DNA from: Dictyostelium discoideum
Lineage: Eukaryota
NCBI GenBank assembly: GCA_000004695.1
Contig: CM000154.2
Span: 3,200,001-3,264,000, forward strand
Direction of reading: 5' to 3'
Length of the DNA stretch: 64,000 bases
The notes beneath the pieces were generated by a model. It made no database searches. It was not told where the DNA came from and worked only from the letters and a program-made list of their open reading frames with translations. Made by a program: the position numbers and the translations under genes. Positions 1 through 33,509 of the stretch are shown piece after piece. How positions within the stretch are numbered: the first letter of the stretch is position 1; the number at the start of each line of letters is the position of its first letter.

Positions 1-2459
1 TAGAGCATGTTGATAATGTTAGAAAGTTTTTCAGATGTATTGGTTTAATGTTTTCAACAACGATTCCAACAGTTACATTACCACAGAATCGTATCTATAG
101 AATCCAAGATATCACCAGAAATACCCATGAATTCACCGAGGGATGTGGTGAAATTGGTCCAGAACTTGCTAAACATTTAAATGAAAATTATAATTTCAGA
201 CCATCAACATGTGCATATCAAGTTAGAATAGGTGGAAATAAAGGTGTGTTGGTGGTAAACAATCAAGCACCCGATCCATCTGGTATTTATATTAGACCAA
301 GTATGGTGAAATTCAATCCAATCGATTGTGGTGATGAACATAGAACATTAGAGATTTGCAGTGTTTCGACAACTTCAAGATGTAAATTAAATAGACAAGT
401 CATCAGTTTACTCTCAACATTGGGTACACAAGATAATGTTTTCTTTGCATTACAAGATCATTATCTAAATCAAGTGGCTCAAATCGTAAATGATACCAAT
501 GCTTCCAAACAAGCAATCGTTGAATTCTTTCCAGATATTACAGAGGGTGAACTTTATCAAGATCCTTACATTCGTAGAATTTTAATTAGTCTTTATAAAT
601 TAAAAATGGAGAGAATTCAACAAAAATGTCATATAGAGATTAAAGATAGTAGAATGTTGTTGGGTGTTTGTGATCCAACAAATTCATTACCACCAAATAC
701 TGTATTTGTTCAATTGGAAGAGGAAGATGAAGATGATGATGATGATGGTCGTAAATATGAAAAAGTAATCGAAGGATTGGTAATGGTAATTAAAAATCCT
801 TGTACTCATCCTGGTGATGTAAGATATCTAAAGGCTGTTGATAATATAAGATTAAGACATTTAAGAAATGTATTGGTTTTCTCAACAAAAGGTGACGTAC
901 CAAACTTTAAAGAAATTTCAGGTTCAGATTTAGATGGTGATCGTTATTTCTTTTGTTACGATAAATCATTGATTGGTAATCGTTCAGAATCAGAGACAGC
1001 CTATTTAGTTGTCGAGACCGTTTCAAACAATGATAAAAAGGCCAATGTTTTCAATGATCCATTTGCTTTATCCTCAATGTACTCTACAAATGCTGAACGT
1101 CAAGAACTTGGTAAATTGTATCATTCACATTTGGCAATCTCTGATCAATACGGTGCAAATCACAAATATTCAATTCAAATCTCTAAAGAATGTTTTAAAG
1201 AAATTGATTATCCAAAAACTGGTATTCATGGCACTATTCCAAAAGAAGTAAACATTCGGTTACAAACTGTAGGTTATCCACATTATATGCAAAGAGAGAA
1301 TTCAACCAGAGTCTATTATCAATCGAAAAAAATTATGGGTAAAATGTATGATCAAATTGATCAGTTGGTTTATATTGGTGATTTCTTACCAAATATTAGT
1401 CTTGATAAAAGTAATTTGGTTGATGGCTATGAAATCTATTTAAATAGTGCTAAAATCTTATATAGTCAGTATAAACTTCAAGTTCATTCATTGTTAAGAC
1501 ATTATTCAGCAGAATCTGAAGAATCTATAATGATTGGTTTCCTTGATCAAGGTTTCATTAGTGATAAAGTTTCAAAAGATATCAAAGGTGAAATGAAAAA
1601 TGATTACATTAAAATTCAACAAACTTTTGAAAATGAGTTTTTAAAGGAATTTGGTGAACAACACAAAGAGAATTGTTTATTGATTCATAGAGTAAACATT
1701 GAAAAGAAGGTTTCAGCTTGGTACCATGTTGCATATAGTGATTTGAAAGATGATAGAGCATTAGGTTTCTATTGGATTGCTCGTTCGTTCAAACAGATGA
1801 CATTGGATCAAGAAAGTCAAAAGAAAAAAAATATTTTGGTTAATAGCATCTTGGATCATATGAACAAAAAAAAAGATACTTTATTCCCATTATACGAAAG
1901 TCGTTTATTGATTGTCAAAGAATTAACATCATTTTTAAATACGTTAAATGATACAGTATTTAAAGAATCAACATTGGAAATTATTGGTTCAACCGCTACA
2001 ATGTTATTTGATGAAAATTCAAATTTAAATTTATACTTAAAACTAGAGAATCAAAATGATCATATGAATTTAGCTGAAAAGAACGAAATTTTAAATCAAT
2101 TAAAAGATGAAATTAAAACATCCTCTTTTATATCAGCTGAAGCTTGTTCAATTATCAAGATCCAAGGTGACATTCCATTATTTAAATTCAAAATAGATAA
2201 AATTCAATGTTTAATTGGGCTTGAAACTAGTAAATGGTATGAAACATTGGTACAACAACAATACATTACTAAAAATCCTTCAATTTTATCAATATTGTTT
2301 TCAATCATTGATTGGAGTATTAATTCATTGTTTGTTGATAGTGAAACTGGTGAAATTATAAATAATTCAAAGGTTTATTCATCTTTAAACCTTCAAAAAG
2401 TTATAGTTGAGAATTCAATGATACCAAGTATATTCAATAATAAAAATCATAACAATAAC

Positions 2460-2555
<96 letters not shown>

Positions 2556-3356
2556 CATAGTGTAAAGAATCTTACAAAATCAAATTTGTTCTCTTTGTTA
2601 ATTGATTTTTGTATTATCAACAAGTATATAGATAAATGTAATCCAAATGAACTTACAAATACTACATCCAATTTAACAATTGGAAATTGGGTGAAATTGA
2701 TAGAAATAGCTTCAAGATACTTTTCAGTGGATAATAATAACAATAATAACAATAAAGGTCATAAAAGAAAGAAAAACAAAAATTTGGATGAATATAATAC
2801 AAATAATTTAGGTGATACAATCTTATCATTTTTTAGATTCTATTCAGATAGTTTTGGACGTTCAATCTATGGAAATGAACCATTCATTATTAAATTGTTT
2901 TCTAAAGATGCCAATGATATTGAAAATCAAATACTCAATCCTTCAACTGAATCACATAAAACTGCTTTATTATTTTATCAAGAATCATTTAGACATGCAT
3001 TTCATTCTCTTAGTACTTTTGTTAGCGTTGAAGAGTTCTTATCAAATTGTTTAAAAACTACAAAAAAAATAATGCCAATTAAAAAAAATCAAATTAATCT
3101 TTTACAAGAGAGAAGTGTAAATGAAGAAATAGTTAAAAATGTTCAATTATGTGGTTGTAGTATTAAAATTGATACAAATGTTAAAAATCCTTATATTTTA
3201 ATCGATGGAAAACCACAACAAATAAGATTGGCTCAAAATGCAATTAGAGATCTCTTGTCTATAAAAACTGAAAACTATAATTTGGCCATCACAAAAAGAA
3301 ATAATAAAAGAAAGAATTTTACATTGGGTGATTTTGCTAAAAATAAAATAAAATAA
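1..3356 (+). CDS. Cellular RNA-dependent RNA polymerase (RNAi-type RdRP), C-terminal ~1100 aa. The frame is open to the window start, so the true 5' end lies upstream. Contains a 37-residue poly-Asn insertion.
   Basis: Frame of ORF 48..3356 has no stop back to nt 3. The ISGSDLDGDRYFFCYD catalytic motif (DxDGD signature of eukaryotic RdRPs) is present, with surrounding conserved blocks (NPCTHPGDVR, LVFSTKG). Confidence 0.8.
2455..2553 (+). repeat. (AAT)n microsatellite encoding poly-Asn inside the RdRP CDS
   Basis: Uninterrupted aat triplets visible in the sequence; in frame with the CDS. Confidence 0.9.
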
Positions 3357-3631
3357 ATAAAATCTTTTTAGAAAGAGTTCCTTTTAGTTTCCATCTATAT
3401 TTTTATTTTAAAAGTAATTTATTTAATTATTTATATTAAAATTAAAAAAAAATTGACCAAATTTAATAATATATAAAAATAAAAAATAATTATAAAAAAT
3501 AAGTACAAAATTTATTATATTATATTTTAAACACAAATCCACTCAAAATAATCATTTTAATATATATTCAATAATTGTTTTTGGTGGGAAGGTAATTTTT
3601 TTTTTTTTTAGATCAAAAATAATAAATTAAC

Positions 3632-4266
3632 CTAAATAATTAAAATTGTCGAGAATAAAATTATAGATAAAATAAAATTTATATTGGTCTTTATGGATTC
3701 ATTTTTGATTTCATTGTTAATTAAACTATTACCACCAATTTTACCATTAATTGTAATGTTAACAAATTGTTGTTGTTGTTCAGTTTGATTAATATTAAAA
3801 TTTGAAGGTTCTACAAAACATGAAATCGATGTTGAATTTATAAATGTAGAGTTTAAACATTTACTTTTACCAACTGTAATTAAATCAATTTCATTATAAA
3901 ATTCATTACCAAAAATTGTAAAAATTCCACCAATTGATGAATTCGAAATCGTTGAATTTAAAACTAATGGGGGATAATATGATATTGAAATGTTATACTT
4001 TTCATCTTTACCATTAAATTTGATTTTACAAAGTTGATCAAATGAACCTTCTAATTTAATATCACATGCAATAGTTAGTTTATAAATGAGCAATTGTAAA
4101 CTTGTTTATTTGAAAAGCAATATACAGATGTATTGTAAATTGTATTTTCATTAAAATTTTCACTGATAATCAATAATTCACCACCAGTGGAGTTGAAAAC
4201 AGTGGATTGATTTACAAAATTAATCAATGGTCTAATATCAACATTGTAGTTTACCAAATTTATCAA
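3632..4266 (-). CDS. 3' part of a gene for an N-glycosylation-sequon-rich secreted or membrane glycoprotein with a hydrophobic C-terminal tail (GPI or TM). Two ORFs in different frames overlap at 4075-4093, implying a frameshift or sequencing error.
   Basis: ORFs 3632..4093 and 4075..4266 are both dense in NxS/T sequons and Cys, and end in [14 protein letters not shown] stop lies immediately upstream of 4266 with a possible acceptor (atattag), so further exons probably lie upstream. Confidence 0.3.
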
Positions 4267-4527
4267 ATTCAGTTAGAGGGACAATTGATACTAGATTATT
4301 AAAATCAAATAATCCAACCGGTTTTAATCAAATTAATCAAAAAAGATATTGAAAATAAAATGAAATTAAGATCTAAAATCCAAAATCAAATATCAATTGA
4401 TTATTCAATTTGGTCACCACCCAACCAATACCAATTTTAATGTCAAATAATAATAATAATTTAAATTTTAAAAAATTATTCAATAGATATTGAAATAAAA
4501 AAAAAACAAAAAAACTATTTTATTAAA

Positions 4528-5682
4528 CTACCCAACTACACCTACGTCAACACCTGAATAACTAATTATTATTCTTGTGCAACTTGATAAACTTTCATTT
4601 ATTTTACTGCCATATAGATTTCTAAAAAATCTATAAAGAACCAAAGGAGTGAGGAATAGGAAATTGACTTTGAAAAGTATTGGAGCTAATGAGAGTGAGG
4701 AAACAATGAACCAAGATCTATCTAAATGAGGATTAACTAAAAAACTTGGAAATGGAATTTTGTTTAAAATTTTCTTTACCTTTTCATCATAAGTTTGTTT
4801 GAAATGATGTTGATTTGCAATTGATAAAATACCACTAGATATACTTACAGCTTGAGTGTATGCCAATCTATATATTTTGTTATTTGATATTGGTTTTCTA
4901 AATCTTGATGTTAGCACCATAAAAAAATATCCAAATAAATATCCACCTGCAAATTCAAGTAAAAGTTTCTCTCTTACACGCTCTTTTTCAATGTAATCAC
5001 TACTCTTATAAAGAGCAGAAATGAATCTACTAATGATGACTATATCAGATTTTTTTGTACAATATTTTGAATATTCTGCTGTACCACGATCTGATGGTCC
5101 ATTTAAATAGTTTAATTGTTGAGGTAATTCAATTGGTGGTAAATTATTAGCTTGTCTATATTTAATTGTAAGTTTAATGATTAATTTATAGAATGCAGCT
5201 GGATCAATACTATAGTTTGTAACTGCATAGTATTTAAATGGATTTGATATATTATTTGATTTTCTGCCTACTCTTTCAACACGTTTATACCATGATGGAT
5301 ATTGATTCGGATCGGTTGAAGGGGAATCAATACTACCACATTGATTATGTTTCATTAAATAGTCTATACAATATTGGTATATACCACTTTCAATTAATTT
5401 TGAACTTACAATTGCATGTTCACCAAATGTTTTGAATATAAAATGATATGCATCCTTATCACTAAGTTGATAAATGATTTTCTTTGAAATTAAATTATAA
5501 TCTTCTTTTGTTAAACGACAATATACTGAATTATATAATACTGGTACTTCATCAATTAACTGAGCTGGACATTTATAATTAAAATCATAACTTGTGAGTT
5601 CATAAAAAAAAAGTGCTATTGACATAAAATAAATAATTCTTAAAGTTTTAGAATCTTTTTTAATAAATTCTTCTTCTTTTTT

Positions 5683-5753
<71 letters not shown>

Positions 5754-6144
5754 CTTTATTATCATTATTATTATAATTATTATTTTTATTATTATTATCA
5801 TCATTATTATTTTTATTATTATTATTAAGACTTTCTAAATCTTGTTTAGTTTCAAATGGTGTTTTAAAAATAAAAGGATTTTTTAAAATTTGTTGTTCAT
5901 TATTAATATTTAATTTTGAATCTTCTTTTTCATTAAATTTTTTAAAACCAGATTCCATTGATAACGAATCACTATTGTTATTTTCGTTTTTTTTTTCTTT
6001 TTCTTTTTCTTTATTTAAATCTTTAGTAGGTTTGAAACCAAATGATCTATAATATAAACCACTATTTTTTGATATTAATTTATTGTTGAAAAATCTACTA
6101 AGATTTTTTATTTTTGAAATCTGCATTTTTTTAATTATCACCAA
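4528..6144 (-). CDS. Hypothetical 538-aa protein with predicted TM segments and an internal poly-Asn; paralog of the adjacent gene
   Basis: Long ORF that shares blocks with ORF 6289..7908: [38 protein letters not shown]. Confidence 0.6.
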
Positions 6145-6288
6145 AAGGGTGTATGTGTGTTGTTGTTGAAATGAAAAAAAAACTAAAAAAAAAATATGAA
6201 AAAAAAAAAAAAATAAAAAAAAAATGCATTATTTTTTTATTTTTTTATTTTTTATTTTATTAAATAATAGTTTATTATTTTTATTTTT

Positions 6289-7908
6289 TTATTTATAATA
6301 TGAATTATCTATCAATTGATTTTTTAAAGGTATGATAGTAGTTGAAATAAAATAAGGAATAATAAAATACAATCTTGATGGAATAAATAATAATGGAACC
6401 ACGGAAATTGAAAATCTGTACCAAGCATTAAAATGTTTATCAAAATCTTTTGGTTCAAATATTGAAAAATATTTAATATAGAGTTCTTTGGCATCGAGAT
6501 TAAAGATTTGTTTATTGGTTTTATCATTTAAAATTGTAAGTAATACTGTGATTATTAAGGTGCTATTTACATTAAGCTTTCTATTACCACGAAATACTGG
6601 CATCCAATTGGTTAATTTATTTCTTCTAACTCTAAATGACATATATGCTAAAGTTACCAATGAAGTAATTAATACATTTTCAATTAATCTCTTTTTTTGA
6701 CTCTCTCTAATTTCTTTTGTAGATTTTAAAGTTTGAATTACATTATGATATGGTTTTTCTTCAGATTTTACTGCACTATTAATTTGATTTTGATTTAGTG
6801 TGGTGGTGGTAGTTGTAATAGTAGTAGTTGTCATTGTTCTAGTAGTAGTGGTAGAAGTAGTAGCAGTAGGTTCTATTTGACTAATAGAATCATCACTATT
6901 AATAAATTCTTTTATTTGATCAGGAATTTCAATTGGTGGTAAACCATACTTTTTATTATAACCTTGAGTAATCATAATGATTGCTTTATAAAATTTTAAA
7001 ACTAAAATACCATTATAATAGGTTGGATTTGATTTAACTAATGCAGGACTCAAAGAATTTATTGGTAAATCTATATCTGGATAATTATTGATATGTTTCA
7101 TTATATAGTCTAAACAATATTGATAGATTCCACTCTCAATTAGGGATACACGTGAAAATGAACTAAAATAAAAACAACGGACAATGAATTTCTCTACTAT
7201 TGAATCATTTGTTTGATATGCTAATTTCTTTGAAAAAATTTCATAATCTTCTTTTGTTAAACAATTAAAAAACACTGTTGATATTAAAGTTGAATTTGAT
7301 CTTAAATTAGAGAATGGACCAAAATTTGTAACTATTAAATAAAGTGAAATCAAAAATATACCAAACAACCTTAAAAATATTCTACCTGCTGCTCCCCAAA
7401 GGGTTTCTGGTGGTGGTAATTCTTTTTCTTGTTTCTCTTTTTCTTGTTTTTCTTTCTCTTCTTTTTCTTTTTCTTTTTCTTTTTGTCTTTCTTCTTCAGT
7501 TTGTTCTTTTAATTCTGATGGTAATTTTAATATTAATGGGTTTTCATTTAAATTTGTTGGCACTTGAGTATTTTCTAATTTTATTTTTTTTATTTTATTA
7601 TTATTATCATTATTAACTGATTCAAATTGATTTAATGTTGAAAAATTTCTATTTTTAAAAAATAATGATTGTGATTGTGATTGTGATTGTGATTGTGATT
7701 GTGATTGTGATTGTGATTGTGATTGTGATTGTAAATTATTATTTGTTAATAAATTTATTTTATTTTTTAAATTAAAAGAACCATATGGTTGTTTTAATTC
7801 TATTAATTTTTTATTAAATAATAGATTATAATTTATCGATTTTAATTTATTAATATTATTTGAACTAAAATTATAAATCTTCATTTTTTTATTTATTGTT
7901 GGTGCCAC
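6289..7908 (-). CDS. Hypothetical 539-aa protein, tandem paralog of 4528..6144. Carries a (QS)10 repeat and a KE-rich tract.
   Basis: Same conserved blocks ([25 protein letters not shown]) and same orientation, 145 bp downstream of the paralog's start. Confidence 0.6.
7668..7732. repeat. (TGATTG)n hexanucleotide repeat, about 11 units, encoding (QS)n on the minus strand
   Basis: Direct reading of gattgtgattgtgattg... Confidence 0.9.
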
Positions 7909-8140
7909 TGAGAGTTCACAAATTTTTCAAATTGTGAAATGAAAATTAAAAAAAAACAAAAAAAAAAAATTTTAATTTAAAAAAAAAGAAAATTTTAAAA
8001 AAAATTTAATATCTGGTAATTGAGAAAAATAAAAAAATAAAAAAAATTAGGTATCCTTCTTTATTTAATTAATTTTTTAATTTTTGAAAGAGGTTGTAAA
8101 ATCCTATTTTGACCAGTTTTGAATACTCTATTTTACCCTC

Positions 8141-8155
8141 CAAGAATCGAACATG
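8141..8155 (-). promoter_or_regulatory. External B box (extra TFIIIC B-box copy), about 32 bp downstream of the tRNA-Val 3' end
   Basis: Minus-strand CATGTTCGATTCTTG matches the B-box consensus GGTTCGANTCC. Dictyostelium tRNA genes typically carry such an ex-B box 20-40 bp downstream. Confidence 0.45.
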
Positions 8156-8186
8156 CGTTCTATTTGAAAAAAATAGAGAAAATTAG

Positions 8187-8260
8187 TATTCAGAGCGGGA
8201 ATCGAACCCACGACCTAATCCGTGTTAAGGATTCGTGATAACCGACTACACCATCCGAAC
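8187..8260 (-). tRNA. tRNA-Val (anticodon AAC)
   Basis: Reverse complement folds as a cloverleaf: acceptor GTTCGGA/TCTGAAT (two G-U pairs), D-arm GTGT..CACG, anticodon stem AATCC/GGATT with loop TTAACAC, T-arm GTGGG-TTCGATT-CCCGC, discriminator A. Close to metazoan tRNA-Val-AAC. Confidence 0.85.
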
Positions 8261-8494
8261 CAATCGATATTTTTTAAAAAATTTTATTCGATTAAAATTC
8301 AAAACTTAAATAGGTGCTTTTTAAATAATTTTAAATTGTATTTTATAAAAATGAATTATAATAATTATCTCATACTTTTTTAATTTTTTATCTATTATCT
8401 ATTCTTTTTTTAAAAAATGATAAATTTTTTTTTTTTTCTTTTTTTTTTTTTGTGATAATTTGTTTGAACATTAAATAATTAATTAAATTAAAAT

Positions 8495-10036
8495 TTATTT
8501 TCTTTGTTTTAATAAAGAGGCTTCACTTGCCCAAAGTTGTAATAATTTTGATTCAATTTCACGAGCTTGAGTGACAGAAGGTGGATCTAATGGATTTGGA
8601 TATCTAAGATCTAAATGATGAGCACCACCTTCAATGGTAAGAGCAACGATTGAATCTGAACGAGTTTCTAAAATACCACCAGATCTCCAAACATCGAGTA
8701 CACCATTTGAAAAGATGATATTAGTGGCAGAGAAATTACTACCACCATAATAGGTAGTAATCCAATATGGATCTGGGGTAGTTTGAAATTGTTGTTGGCA
8801 TTGTTGAGTTAAATCAGATAAAGAGAATGGTGAAGGTGGGAAGAAATCATTTACACCATCTGAACTTACAGGCATAACCATTTCAGTACATGCTTGATAA
8901 TTCCAACTTGCATCACCCAATGCACCAGTGGTAAATACAGACATGTTATAGCAAGTACCAGCTTGACCAGTGTAGTTATAGTAAACATGTAACACCTCCA
9001 AGAGTCCTTGAATATCGTCTTCTTGTTGAGCCAAAGCACTACAAGATACATTGATTGGGTAACCTGGCATTGGTTCTAAAAAGTTTGCTGGATATGGGTA
9101 GTCTGCCATGGCCATATAAGTTAAAGCAGACTCAATCCAATTGATTAAATCATTAACATCGGTCAATGGTGCACCACAAACTGAGAAAGTTTTACTCAAT
9201 TGTGCTAAACCATTGGATTGTGTTGAAATGGTGACGATATCATTCAAAGCCGATCTGATACGAGATGCACATGTGCCTTCAGAGCTTGTGTCTTTAAAAT
9301 CATCAGTGGCAATCTTATTGAATGTCTCTGGATTTACACCAGTATTTAAAAAACTAAGAATTGGTGCACTTGCTGCCAATGCACCATCGACAATGTTTGG
9401 ATATTTCATTCTAAACCATGCAGTTAGCATACCACCATATGAGCCACCCACTGAAAGTACTGGACAATGCTCTGCACCCATCTCTGACAAAACAGCTGGT
9501 ATCAATTGTGCATAGTCTGCCAATGCTTGCTCACTTGTTAAATATCCAATATTATCAGATGTCCATGAGTCATTACCAAATGGTAATGATTCACCATAGT
9601 AACGATGTTCAGCAAAAATTAATAATGCATTCATTTCTTGTGCTAATACATTGGTTACAAATTGTGAATTATCATAGAACAATGTTATATCACCTTCATT
9701 ACCTGTATAGAAAAGTATTGGTCCTTGACATACTTTATCATTTGGTGATGGTTTTTTCCAATAAACATCTGATACTAAATATCTTTGTGCAAATTCACCT
9801 TTTGATTGAAAATTAAAATGATCTAATGTTTGTAAAAAAAAAAGTTCTTGATATGGTGGTGGTGGTGGTGGTGGATCATTAGAAACAAAGTGTTGTTCTT
9901 GTTCTTGTTGTTTTCTATCTACATGTTTTTTACTATAATATGGAAATGGTGATCTATATCTTTGATATAATTGTTCTTTACAATTAATAATTGATATTAA
10001 TGATAAAATTATTAATAATTTAAAAACCACCATCAT
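8495..10036 (-). CDS. Serine carboxypeptidase of the S28 family (lysosomal Pro-X carboxypeptidase / PRCP-like); secreted, single exon
   Basis: N-terminal signal peptide MMVVFKLLIILSLISIINC. S28 hallmarks: FYTGNEGDI, ALLIFAEHRYYGESLPF, catalytic GGSYGGMLTAWFRMKYP, and a C-terminal HH..DLR block. Confidence 0.85.
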   Translation of the reverse strand: MMVVFKLLIILSLISIINCKEQLYQRYRSPFPYYSKKHVDRKQQEQEQHFVSNDPPPPPPPYQELFFLQTLDHFNFQSKGEFAQRYLVSDVYWKKPSPNDKVCQGPILFYTGNEGDITLFYDNSQFVTNVLAQEMNALLIFAEHRYYGESLPFGNDSWTSDNIGYLTSEQALADYAQLIPAVLSEMGAEHCPVLSVGGSYGGMLTAWFRMKYPNIVDGALAASAPILSFLNTGVNPETFNKIATDDFKDTSSEGTCASRIRSALNDIVTISTQSNGLAQLSKTFSVCGAPLTDVNDLINWIESALTYMAMADYPYPANFLEPMPGYPINVSCSALAQQEDDIQGLLEVLHVYYNYTGQAGTCYNMSVFTTGALGDASWNYQACTEMVMPVSSDGVNDFFPPSPFSLSDLTQQCQQQFQTTPDPYWITTYYGGSNFSATNIIFSNGVLDVWRSGGILETRSDSIVALTIEGGAHHLDLRYPNPLDPPSVTQAREIESKLLQLWASEASLLKQRK

Positions 10037-23410: not shown

Positions 23411-24681
23411 ATGAAAATAAATTTATTTTCTTTAAAAATAATAATTATAATTTTAATAATAATTTCAAATTATTCATGTTTTAGTTTTAATTTAAATTAT
23501 TCAAATAATATTAATATTATACAAAAATGTTTTAAATGTTTAAATGTTTCAAAAACTTGTGAAACCATTGAAAATGATCAAATTGTAAAATCAAATAAAA
23601 CATTAATTTGTAGTGATCAACTTGGTTGTAAATCAAGATATTCACAACCATCAATGCATCCAAATAGGACATCAACATGTCATTTACAAGCTAAATATGG
23701 TGATCAATGTGAAACTGCAAGAGGAGGAGATTGTGGTTTTCAAATGATTTGTGATTATCCATTCGATATAACCAGACCACCAATTTGTGTAGGTTTTAAA
23801 GCATTACAATTTGGTGAAAAATGTCTTTGTGATTCTGAATGTGATAGTTTAATTTGTGATGAAAAAACATTAGTTTGTATTGAAAATAAAAATTCATGTA
23901 GAGTTAATCATTATTGGAATGGTACTATTTGTTTGAAAATCTCTGATACTCCATTCAATAATAATTATAATAATAATAACTGTACTTCTAATTCTCATTG
24001 TTCAATTTTTAATATTTGTAATAATGGTACTTGTATTGAAAAATACTCTTTAAAAGAAGATTCTTATTGTACTTCTGATTTGTCATGTGATATTTCAAAT
24101 TCATTAATTGTATGTAATTATTTATAAAAAGTTAAATATTTGCTTTTTGTTATTTTCATTGACTTTTTATTAATTTATTTATTTATTAATTTATTTTTTT
24201 TAAAAAGTGTGATGAAGGAAAATGTAAACCTTTTAAAAAATCAAATACAACAGATTGTCAAAAGGATGGATGTTTATTTGGATATGAATTTTGTAATTGT
24301 GATAGTGGATTATGTGAACAATCTAGGTTATTTAATAGTGAATGTAAGAAACTTCAAATTCAATTAGATGCATGTGTTTATGGAAGATGTGTTTACACTG
24401 GAGGTTATATTTCAAGTAATTCTTGTGTTATGAAAAATTGTGGTAGTTTAGTTTGTCAACATCATACTAAATGTACAAATGGTCCATGTGGTAATAATAA
24501 TTCTTCATTTTGTATATCAAATACTCATACACCAAATAGTAATAATATAGCAACATCTTCTGGGAAAAATCCTATTCCTAATGGAGGTAGTAGTTCTTCA
24601 AATTCTTCAAATACAATTCCAAAGATATCTTTTATTTTCATTATTTTTATAATAAATTTTATATTTTTATTTTTAATATAG
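23411..24681 (+). CDS. Secreted cysteine-rich protein with a GPI-signal-like hydrophobic C-terminus. Exons 23411..24109 and 24208..24681.
   Basis: Signal peptide MKINLFSLKIIIIILIIIS, many regularly spaced Cys (EGF/cysteine-knot-like), GTATGT donor, aaaaag acceptor. C-terminal Ser-rich stretch then IFIIFIINFIFLFLI. Confidence 0.6.
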
Positions 24682-24802
24682 TTTTAATCAATATAAAGAG
24701 AGTTTAAATAAGTACAAAATAGAAATACCAAAATGTTGTGGTTTTAATTTTTTTTTTTTTTTTTTTTTTATTATTATTTGATTAATTAAATGAATTGGAT
24801 CT

Positions 24803-24854
<52 letters not shown>

Positions 24855-25120
24855 GTAAAATAAAAAATTAGAACTTAAAAATAAAAAAAATTTAAAAGGA
24901 GGGATTTTTTTTTTTTTTTAAAAATAACCTTTTTAATTTTTAATTTTTTTTTTTTTTGGGTTGGGTCAGATAATAAAAAATAGGATTATTTTTATTTAAA
25001 AAAAATTTAAATTTTTTAAAAAATCCATGGAAAAAATTTTTCCATTTTTTTTGAAAAAAAGTTTTAAAAAAAGATTAAAAAAAAAAATTTATTTTTTAAA
25101 GGGGGTTTTCGAATTGGTTA

Positions 25121-25157
<37 letters not shown>

Positions 25158-25171
25158 TTTTTGATAGTTTA

Positions 25172-25204
<33 letters not shown>

Positions 25205-25322
25205 TTAATATAATTTTTTAAACAACCCTTTTTTAGATTATATTATTTTTTTTTTTAACTAAACAAATAATTTTTTTTATTTTTTTTTTTTTTTTTTTTT
25301 TAAAAAAAAGAAAAAAAAAAAA

Positions 25323-27134
25323 ATGAAAAATTGTTTTTTCATTTTTTTAAAAATAATATTTGTTACAGTGATAATATCAAAATATAGTATTGGTGAAATA
25401 GTTAATACAAAATGTTATAAATGTTTAAATGAATTTAATGTATGTCAAACCATAGAAAATGATATACTGATCAAATTGAATGAAACTTTAATATGTAATG
25501 ATCAACTTGGTTGTGTATCAGATTATTCAATGCCATCAATGCATCCAGATAGAACATCAAGTTGTAATTCAAATCAAGGAAAATATGGTGATCAATGTGA
25601 AGTTGGAAATGAAGGATTTTGTGGTTATCAAATGACATGTGATTATCCATTCAATATAAGTTTAGCACCAACATGTGTTGGTTTTAAAACTTTACAACCT
25701 GGAGAGAATTGTATATGTAATTCAGAATGTAATAGTTTAATTTGTGATGAAAATAAATTAGTATGTATAGAAAATCAATACTCTTGTAATGTAAATTCAT
25801 ATTGGAATGGCACAACTTGTGAAAATATTTCAAATTTAGGTGATAGTTGTTCAAGTGATTCACAATGTTCAATTTTTAATACTTGCGAAAATGGAATTTG
25901 TATTGAAAAATACTCTTTAAATGAAAATTCTCTTTGTATTTCAGATTCTGCTTGTAATATTTCAAATTCATTAATTGTATGTATTAATTTATAATTTTAT
26001 AAAATTAAAAATAAAAAAAAAAAAAAAAAAACCTAATATTTTATTTTATTTTATTTTATTTTTTAATAGTGTATTGAAAGAAAATGTCAAGTTTTTAAGA
26101 AATCAAATACAACTAATTGTAAAATTGATGGATGTTTAAAAGATTATGAATATTGTAATTGTGATAGTGGATTATGTGAACAATCAAAAATATTTAATGA
26201 TGAATGTAAATATATACAATATCAATTAGATGCATGTGTTTATGGAAGATGTGTTTACACTGGAGGTTATGTTTCAAGTAATTCTTGTGTTATGAAAAAT
26301 TGTGGAAGTTTAGTTTGTCAACATCATACTAAATGTACAAATGGTCCATGTGGTAATAACAATTCTTCATTTTGTATTTCAAATACATATATACCAAATA
26401 ATATTACCTTACCCAATAGTCCAACAAATAATAGTGAAAATAGTTCTTCAAATTCAACACATAGTAGTGAATCAATAGGTAGTAGTGGTAGTAACAGTAG
26501 TAATAGTAACAGTAGTAATAGTAGCAGTAGTAGTAATAGTAATAGTAGCAGTAGTAGTAATAGTATTAGTAATAGTAGCAGTAATAGTAATAGTAATAGT
26601 AGCAGTAATAGTATTAGTAATAGTAGCAGCAGTAGTAGTAGTTCTTCAGATAGTAATGAAACTGCAGATGACAGTAGTTATTTAAATTCATCAAATGGTG
26701 GCGAGTCAATAGGCGAGGGTAGTACCCCATCTTCTAATTCAACAAATAGTAACGAGTCAATAGGTGATAGTGATAGTTTTTCAAATTCAAAAAATAGTGA
26801 ACCAATTGATGATGGCAGTAACAACTCAGTAAATAGTGATAGTTCTTCAAATTCAGCCATGGATAGAAGTAGTAGTAGTGGTAGTAACTCTTCTAATTCT
26901 ACTTTGGGATCAAAAGAAAATAGTTCTTTAAATTCTACAGACAGTGAGCCAAATGTAACTGCTCCCCCAAACACTGCAAACAATAATGGAACAAAAAATC
27001 ATTCTTTAAATGCAACAACTAGTAATGGATATTATCATAGTGATGAACTTTATATTCCTTCAAATTCAACAAATTCATCTCATTATTCATTTTCATTACT
27101 TTTATTTTTATTATCACTTTTAATTTTAAATTAA
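25323..27134 (+). CDS. Paralog of 23411..24681 with an added ~150-aa Ser/Asn-rich mucin-like stalk before the GPI-like tail. Exons 25323..25976 and 26070..27134.
   Basis: Same Cys framework (CYKCLNEFNVCQTIEND.., CVMKNCGSLVCQHHTKCTNGPCGNNNSSFCISNT), same intron position, (SNS)n repeats, C-terminus LLLFLLSLLILN. Confidence 0.6.

Positions 27135-27433: not shown

Positions 27434-33509
<6,076 letters not shown>

Follow-up and report, generated by a model that had tools for sequence, protein, structure and literature searches.

The genomic stretch analyzed here, referred to as the window, is a 64,000-nucleotide (nt) segment of the Dictyostelium discoideum AX4 genome that is AT-rich (23% G+C). Two neighboring genes at positions 23411 to 27134 of the window, DDB_G0289757 (gene 1; 390 amino acids) and DDB_G0289759 (gene 2; 572 amino acids), are both deposited as "hypothetical." Our results indicated that these genes are tandem duplicates and members of an uncharacterized, dictyostelid-specific family of proteins with about 38 cysteines. 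It is reasonably probable that their products are disulfide-rich surface proteins attached by glycosylphosphatidylinositol (GPI) anchors, that the gene 2 product is carried on a long glycosylated spacer, and that the proteins have a contact or recognition role during development. A preliminary description of the locus, which was prepared from the DNA letters, had proposed tandem GPI-tailed, cysteine-rich secreted proteins of the spore-coat type, one of which had gained a mucin-like stalk. The underlying observation was real and its coordinates were correct. The interpretation was supported in part and, as described below, most of it had been read correctly.

The two genes are arranged head to tail on the plus strand, and each has two exons. 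In protein searches, the spliced translation of gene 1 was 100% identical to the deposited DDB_G0289757 protein over an equal length (390 amino acids), and the spliced translation of gene 2 was the same as the deposited 572-amino-acid DDB_G0289759 protein. Thus, the exon structure that we derived is the deposited one. Both introns start with GTATGT, end with AG, are in phase 0, and follow the same codon ('SNSLI/C', with the slash marking the junction), which agreed with the proposal that the intron position is identical in the two genes. All of the orthologs and a distant relative in EukProt have an intron at this position as well. The gene 1 and gene 2 proteins aligned with 65% identity across 344 amino acids in BLASTP (E = 3e-148), a score far above chance that established them as tandem paralogs. 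A tblastn search found no third copy in the 64,000-nt window. The idea of a larger gene cluster was rejected, as the neighbors are an unrelated HEAT-repeat gene and a gene with BRCT and coiled-coil regions. The features of the locus are as follows, with window coordinates and strand.

23411 to 24109, plus strand: gene 1 exon 1, which encodes the signal-like N-terminus (amino acids 1 to about 25, 23411 to 23485; hydrophobic window at amino acids 8 to 19) and the first two-thirds of the Cys-rich ectodomain; matches the deposited protein.
24110 to 24207, plus strand: gene 1 intron, 98 nt, GTATGT...AG, phase 0, after 'SNSLI'.
24208 to 24681, plus strand: gene 1 exon 2, which encodes the remaining Cys domain, a 34-amino-acid S/N-rich linker, and the hydrophobic tail (amino acids 370 to 390, 24616 to 24678), followed by the stop codon.
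24360 to 24515, plus strand: gene 1 half of the gene-conversion tract, 156 nt with 3 mismatches to 26222 to 26377; encodes the predicted disulfide-stapled helical hairpin that ends the Cys domain.
24682 to 25322, no strand: intergenic spacer, 641 bp, rich in A/T homopolymers; presumed to hold the gene 2 promoter.
25323 to 25976, plus strand: gene 2 exon 1, which encodes the signal-like N-terminus (amino acids 1 to 24, 25323 to 25394; 'SIG/EIV' fits the -3/-1 rule) and Cys domain.
25977 to 26069, plus strand: gene 2 intron, 93 nt, GTATGT...AG, phase 0, positioned as in gene 1.
26070 to 27134, plus strand: gene 2 exon 2, which encodes the end of the Cys domain, the stalk, and the hydrophobic tail, followed by the stop codon.
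26222 to 26377, plus strand: gene 2 half of the gene-conversion tract, identified by identity and informative sites.
26376 to 27089, plus strand: stalk, a 238-amino-acid Ser/Asn-rich low-complexity linker (amino acids 321 to 558) with 26 N-x-S/T sequons; homologous to the stalks of D. cf. discoideum and D. dimigraforme.
26479 to 26642, plus strand: AGT/AAT hexamer microsatellite within the stalk, encoding a pure S/N run of about 55 amino acids; found with Tandem Repeats Finder (TRF).
27090 to 27131, plus strand: gene 2 C-terminal hydrophobic tail FSLLLFLLSLLILN, 14 amino acids, uncharged; preceded by the spacer NSSHYS and the candidate omega sites S549/N550.

The preliminary count of about 30 aligned cysteines proved to be an underestimate; 39 cysteines align between gene 1 and gene 2, and 38 of these are invariant among eight homologs, which implies about 19 disulfides. 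A search of 1.84 billion representative proteins with a Cys-domain profile produced just 16 matches at E values up to 1e-3. Two of the 16 were EukProt models; the other 14 had a named source, and all 14 were uncharacterized dictyostelid proteins. The sources included Cavenderia fasciculata, Tieghemostelium lacteum, Acytostelium subglobosum, Polysphondylium violaceum, D. purpureum, D. citrinum, and D. discoideum itself (DDB_G0293082). Family members have about 38 to 40 cysteines, and their alignment contains 22 invariant and 8 nearly invariant Cys columns. A word-indexed profile search with a wide alignment added metagenome proteins only, and a search seeded with the Acytostelium member returned that member alone.

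Pfam entries for small disulfide-rich modules matched some family members: DUF7107 matched 7 of 16 (best E = 1.5e-10), EB matched 5 of 16, and Dickkopf_N, which has a colipase fold, matched 4 of 16 (best E = 6.5e-9). In the case of the two window proteins, a Pfam scan at E values up to 1 yielded DUF7107 and EB only, and both matches were below the curated cutoffs (18.3 versus 24.6 bits for DUF7107 in gene 1; 19.9 versus 24.3 bits for EB in gene 2). An assignment of function from these subthreshold matches was rejected. Because other family members do match the Pfam entries, a distant kinship between the modules and DUF7107, EB, and Dickkopf_N is likely.

An AlphaFold2 (AF2) model of gene 1 that was built with the family alignment had a mean predicted local distance difference test (pLDDT) score of 73.6, with values greater than 90 at amino acids ~200 to 290. 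The predicted fold was a series of beta-hairpin modules plus two long helices (277 to 293 and 306 to 322), followed by a linker predicted to be disordered (amino acids 336 to 373, pLDDT less than 50) and a terminal helix (375 to 389). An AF2 model built with eight close homologs was unusable (pLDDT of 52.6), and the Foldseek output from that model was meaningless. A PDB sequence search with the family profile returned nothing relevant, and the whole ~300-amino-acid arrangement with its C-terminal helical hairpin had no PDB match.

Each of the two window proteins has two hydrophobic segments only, one near the N-terminus (amino acids 8 to 19 in gene 1 and 8 to 16 in gene 2) and one at the extreme C-terminus. 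Both N-termini have a basic n-region (MK), a strongly hydrophobic core of 9 to 12 residues, and plausible -3/-1 sites; the heuristic check placed candidate cleavage sites at 'SIG/EIV' in gene 2 and at 'IIS/NYS' or 'CFS/FNL' in gene 1. The C-termini were compared in eight orthologs (i.e., the two genes in D. discoideum, D. cf. discoideum, D. citrinum, and D. dimigraforme). All eight end in a hydrophobic tail of 14 to 21 residues (18 to 21 in gene 1 and 14 in gene 2) that has 0 or 1 charged residue and runs to the stop codon. Before each tail is a polar spacer of 4 to 12 residues and small-residue triplets (e.g., GSS/SSS for gene 1 and SNS/NST for gene 2). A rule-of-thumb check for GPI signals was positive for eight of eight orthologs, with at least two candidate omega sites in each; D. 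citrinum gene 1 was counted after removal of one annotated intron, as described below. More broadly, 15 of 18 tabulated family proteins have a hydrophobic tail at the end. These rule-based checks bore out the signal-like N-terminus and GPI-signal-like C-terminus that had been described for both genes.

The deposited D. citrinum gene 1 model (ACTFIV_008479, P0002) at first seemed to lack a tail. Reading through the second annotated intron (7085 to 7255 of the D. citrinum stretch L001) restored a protein ending in ISISFISIVFIFIINIIIFF directly before the stop codon. Because this ending is a conserved hydrophobic tail resembling that of the D. discoideum ortholog, the second intron is probably spurious and the D. 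citrinum model probably wrong. In csA, a lipid-anchored adhesion protein of D. discoideum, the C-terminal 25 amino acids hold the anchor signal (PMC2119896). Given this precedent and the pattern of tails, spacers, and triplets, we infer that GPI anchoring is the best reading of the C-terminal segments.

The most conspicuous difference between the paralogs is the linker between the last Cys and the hydrophobic tail, which is 238 amino acids long in gene 2 versus 34 in gene 1. An extra region of this kind had been described as about 150 residues of (SNS)n. Its presence is clear; its size had been set too low, and it is not a pure repeat. Specifically, the AGT/AAT hexamer array covers 164 nt only (26479 to 26642, about 55 amino acids; TRF period 6, 27.3 copies, 77% matches), and the stalk outside of the array is degenerate and rich in S, N, D, E, and G, with stretches resembling "S-x-N-S-T-N-S-x-E-S-I-G." The stalk consists of 40% Ser, 20% Asn, 6% Thr, and 3.6% Pro and has 26 N-x-S/T sequons in 220 amino acids. 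The term "mucin-like" was supported only in part; tandem repeats are present, but the stalk is Pro poor, Ser/Asn rich, and full of N-glycosylation sequons, unlike a classical Pro/Thr/Ser mucin domain. This composition points to N-glycosylation as much as to an O-glycan mucin.

Linkers of 5 to 42 amino acids were found in 11 of the 15 tailed family proteins and throughout the gene 1 lineage, and the gene 2 linkers of D. discoideum, D. cf. discoideum, and D. dimigraforme are 224 to 264 amino acids long. Since most tailed family proteins carry the short form, the long stalk of the gene 2 lineage is derived, and the idea that this copy gained its stalk had the right polarity. The C-terminal ~70 residues of the stalk can be aligned between D. 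discoideum and D. dimigraforme, which indicates that the stalk predates the split of these species. The syntenic gene 2 of D. citrinum has a linker of 42 amino acids. Its DNA reading frame is unbroken from the Cys domain into the tail, and the possibility that a stalk was concealed in an intron of the model was rejected on this basis. The D. citrinum linker retains the fragments "SENNSSNS," "SYLNSSNG," and "NSSHYSFS" of the longer stalk. In four of four blocks of flanking genes, synonymous divergence (dS) placed D. citrinum nearer to D. discoideum than D. dimigraforme is. One gain followed by a deletion in D. citrinum would be the simplest history.

The repeats within the stalk differ among species. 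AX4 has the 164-nt AGT/AAT array, D. cf. discoideum has a 27-nt unit present in 3.2 copies, and D. dimigraforme has an 84-nt unit present in 5.6 copies. The AGT/AAT array is shorter in D. cf. discoideum (68 nt), and the stalks of D. discoideum and D. cf. discoideum differ in length by 14 amino acids. A relative in T. lacteum (P0013) has an independent S/T/N stalk of about 208 amino acids at the same position.

The 3' end of the Cys domain has a different history. Within species, the nucleotide identity of the paralogs rises from about 0.77 in exon 1 to 0.96 to 0.98 at the 3' end of the Cys domain, where it exceeds the identity of orthologs. The core of this tract (24360 to 24515 versus 26222 to 26377; 156 nt, 3 mismatches) encodes the helical hairpin that adjoins the linker. 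We counted parsimony-informative sites that grouped the sequences by orthology and sites that grouped the paralogs within a species (given below as orthology to paralogy).

Amino acids 36 to 233, D. discoideum and D. dimigraforme: 67 to 2.
Amino acids 36 to 233, D. discoideum and D. citrinum: 56 to 4.
Amino acids 36 to 233, D. citrinum and D. dimigraforme: 59 to 4.
Amino acids 280 to 343, D. discoideum and D. dimigraforme: 1 to 6.
Amino acids 280 to 343, D. discoideum and D. citrinum: 3 to 7.
Amino acids 280 to 343, D. citrinum and D. dimigraforme: 0 to 5.

The switch between the two regions was significant in all three comparisons (Fisher P values of 9e-7, 3e-5, and 1e-5). The last ~156 nt of the Cys domain has been homogenized between the paralogs by gene conversion, and the same within-species homogenization was observed in D. 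citrinum and D. dimigraforme. Pairwise ratios of nonsynonymous to synonymous divergence (dN/dS) were 0.15 to 0.5, and overall positive selection was rejected; values of 0.15 to 0.44 indicated that both copies are under purifying selection. The dN values were 2 to 10 times those of the flanking genes, and gene 2 is evolving faster than gene 1.

Published data were used to infer when the genes are expressed. The sources were supplement 7 of Rosengarten et al. 2015 (PMC4403905), in which "UP" lists contain genes whose expression is higher than 1 to 4 h earlier, and supplement 5 of Kin et al. 2018 (PMC6198379), which includes values from Parikh 2010. In the lists of the former supplement, DDB_G0289757 appeared under UP_Hr14_gradual for filter development and under UP_Hr10_rapid and UP_Hr12_gradual for suspensions pulsed with cyclic AMP (cAMP) (PMC4403905). 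It occurs four times in that supplement, and the fourth list could be UP or DOWN. DDB_G0289759 was listed under UP_Hr06_rapid for cAMP-pulsed suspensions (PMC4403905), and it is among the cup-enriched genes of Kin et al. (PMC6198379). The RNA-seq values for DDB_G0289759 (PMC6198379) were as follows.

Time course: 0 h, 0.8; 4 h, 2.9; 8 h, 8.9; 12 h, 9.9; 16 h, 4.4; 20 h, 4.5; 24 h, 2.8.
Cell types: prespore, 2.9; prestalk, 1.9; cup, 3.4; spore, 0.5; stalk, 2.1; vegetative, 1.1.

Both genes are developmentally upregulated and weakly expressed. Gene 2 expression peaks from the aggregation to the mound stage (8 to 12 h) and is not enriched in prespore cells or spores. Thus, the suggestion of developmental regulation was upheld by the published lists and RNA-seq values in these supplements (PMC4403905, PMC6198379).

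Taken together, the results are compatible with the following series of events. An N-terminal signal peptide would direct both proteins into the secretory pathway. The ectodomain of about 300 residues and about 19 disulfides would fold as small beta-hairpin modules (distantly Dickkopf_N-, DUF7107-, or EB-like) capped by a disulfide-stapled helical hairpin. Most likely, cleavage at a small residue ahead of the hydrophobic tail would then allow a GPI anchor to be attached, which would place the ectodomain on the outer face of the plasma membrane. The 34-amino-acid linker of gene 1 would keep the ectodomain near the membrane. In the case of gene 2, the 238-amino-acid Ser/Asn-rich spacer, which is probably disordered and heavily N- and O-glycosylated, would hold it tens of nanometers further out. 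In the gene 2 lineage, the spacer probably originated as short tandem repeats expanded, and it is still changing, as seen in the species-specific repeat units and the near-complete deletion in D. citrinum. Gene conversion has held the final part of the Cys domain nearly identical in both copies. Both genes are turned on weakly during aggregation and mound formation, and the most likely role of the proteins would be that of developmental cell-surface contact or recognition molecules.

Several points weighed against anchored contact proteins with a functional spacer. No paper naming either gene in its main text was found in a literature search by gene ID, and neither gene ID was found in the accessible supplement text of a life-cycle proteome paper. 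The signal-peptide and omega-site calls came from textbook rules of thumb rather than trained predictors, and expression was low (less than 10 units for gene 2). In addition, D. discoideum proteins very often contain Ser/Asn tracts encoded by trinucleotide repeats, the open reading frame (ORF) downstream of the pair in the window carries long poly-N/Q runs, and D. citrinum lives without the stalk; for these reasons, the stalk might be tolerated rather than functional. In this alternative, the stalk would be a neutral expansion of trinucleotide or other short tandem repeats, of the type widespread in Dictyostelium coding sequence, and would be tolerated since nothing constrains the linker that joins the ectodomain to the anchor signal. 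The microsatellite nature of 164 nt of the stalk, the repeat units that differ in every species, the 14-amino-acid length difference even between D. discoideum and D. cf. discoideum, the intact D. citrinum gene despite near-total loss of its stalk, and the homopolymer runs of the neighboring ORF would all be expected. However, a long stalk has been kept since before the D. discoideum/D. dimigraforme split with about 70 alignable C-terminal residues, the T. lacteum relative acquired a second long stalk at precisely the equivalent position, and the N-x-S/T sequons are dense. Neutrality is compatible with each of these points too, and we considered a functionless stalk to be a serious possibility, albeit one that is rather unlikely.

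The nature of the anchor allowed a second alternative, namely, that the C-terminal segments are type I transmembrane anchors without a cytoplasmic tail or that the proteins are released as soluble or extracellular matrix components. The gene 1 tails of 18 to 21 residues are long enough to span a bilayer, and three family members (DDB_G0293082, P0022, and P0012) are entirely tailless as modeled, which means that the family may include soluble forms. In contrast, the gene 2 tail, at 14 residues, is too short to cross a membrane, and the tails stop exactly at the C-terminus and lack both cytoplasmic and flanking basic residues. The small-residue triplets 4 to 9 residues upstream of the tail in all eight orthologs and the precedent of the C-terminal anchor signal in csA (PMC2119896) also favored GPI anchoring and made the transmembrane or soluble forms improbable. 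The spore-coat-type role that was put forward in the preliminary description fared worst. At 14 h, gene 1 does rise, as might be expected of prespore or spore-coat structural proteins, and Cys-rich, Ser-rich secreted proteins superficially resemble SP96. Coat proteins, however, are not known to be C-terminally anchored, and Pfam scans at E values up to 1 gave no match to Dicty_spore_N, Dicty_CTDC, or follistatin-type domains. Because gene 2 is low, peaks at the aggregation and mound stages, and is cup enriched according to Kin et al. with no prespore or spore enrichment, its expression largely refuted a spore-coat role for this gene, and we found such a role scarcely credible for the pair.

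A bolder extension of the anchored contact-protein explanation is that the pair represents the youngest branch of an unstudied family, spread across the dictyostelids, of GPI-anchored, ~19-disulfide contact or recognition proteins. Spacer length would be tuned separately in each lineage, with long spacers in D. discoideum and D. dimigraforme, a deletion in D. citrinum, and an independently acquired long spacer in T. lacteum. The membrane-proximal hairpin would be kept identical by conversion for docking to a common partner, and the difference in stalks between D. discoideum and D. citrinum might aid cell sorting by species or kin. This proposal is a long shot.

The closest known analogs in architecture appear to be PsA and csA. 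PsA/SP29 (pspA) is a prespore cell-surface glycoprotein of D. discoideum that has a signal peptide, a small globular domain, an O-glycosylated tandem-repeat spacer, and a GPI anchor. By description alone, this arrangement is like that of gene 2. The number of repeats in the PsA spacer is reportedly polymorphic (Gooley, Marschalek, and Williams 1992, a title cited in PMC2119896). The PsA spacer, however, is Pro/Thr rich, whereas that of gene 2 is Ser/Asn rich and Pro poor; the PsA globular domain is much smaller than the ~38-Cys domain described here; and PsA is strongly prespore specific, which gene 2 is not. The csA (gp80) protein is a lipid-anchored, developmentally induced surface glycoprotein of aggregating cells (PMC2119896). 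Its timing resembles that of gene 2, which is up at 6 h in cAMP-pulsed cells, but csA is abundant and mediates EDTA-resistant adhesion, whereas gene 1 and gene 2 are weakly expressed. We know of no sequence relationship between csA and either gene.

Two other systems offered looser comparisons. The gp64 protein of Polysphondylium (Heterostelium) pallidum is a putative cell-cell adhesion protein that is GPI anchored and has about 36 cysteines, every one of them in a disulfide bond. Going by this description alone, its signature would be strikingly like that of the ~38-Cys family; no H. pallidum protein was present among the 14 of 16 profile matches with a named source. The GPI-anchored Flo/Als adhesins of fungi, which have Ser/Thr-rich repeats, hold a ligand or contact domain off the surface on a glycosylated stalk of tandem repeats, and gains and losses of repeats quickly alter the length of this stalk. 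Their lineage and domains are unrelated to those of gene 2, and the likeness is an analogy only.

This work offers a first account of two D. discoideum genes deposited as "hypothetical" and assigns them to an uncharacterized dictyostelid-specific family. To what had been noted before, it adds the family assignment, the gain and subsequent loss of the stalk, the tract of gene conversion, and the timing of expression. The presence of the stalk in D. discoideum and its absence in D. citrinum would constitute a natural experiment on whether spacer length is important for a surface protein with a GPI anchor. The locus also serves as a small, clean case of mosaic evolution, with divergence in exon 1, gene conversion in the 3' domain, and repeat turnover in the stalk. 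The importance is modest. The proteins belong to a familiar class of slime mold surface proteins, and the results bear on no long-standing question.

A few additional observations were made on the Cys domain and the models of family members. Gene 1 contains an Asn-rich insertion, 'PFNNNYNNNN' (23930 to 23990, amino acids ~180 to 190), between two modules of the Cys domain, and its counterparts in D. citrinum and D. dimigraforme are shorter (SNNN and LNNN). In the public models P0009 (2010 amino acids), P0016 (1390 amino acids), and P0010 (880 amino acids; C. fasciculata DFA_00589), the Cys domain lies within chimeric or fused predictions, and P0010 contains several fused domain copies (five profile-matched stretches). 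The P0016 model reads through the conserved intron after 'CDISKSLY,' which indicates that the intron position is old.

The surroundings of the pair were also of some interest. The spacer at 24682 to 25322 is dominated by poly(T) and poly(A) runs of great length, several exceeding 40 nt. The downstream ORF at 27647 to 33106 on the minus strand encodes 1819 amino acids that include a BRCT domain at the C-terminus, long segments resembling coiled coils, and poly-N and poly-Q runs of great length. This ORF is conserved, with synteny, in all four taxa and illustrates how frequent homopolymer tracts are in this genome. The paralogs are about 600 to 700 bp apart in D. discoideum, D. cf. discoideum, and D. 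citrinum versus about 21 kb apart in D. dimigraforme (JBTAPM010000048.1), where called genes lie between them. Four of these called genes are at 2209 to 9193 of the D. dimigraforme stretch L002, and one of the four has a weak Dicty_CTDC match.

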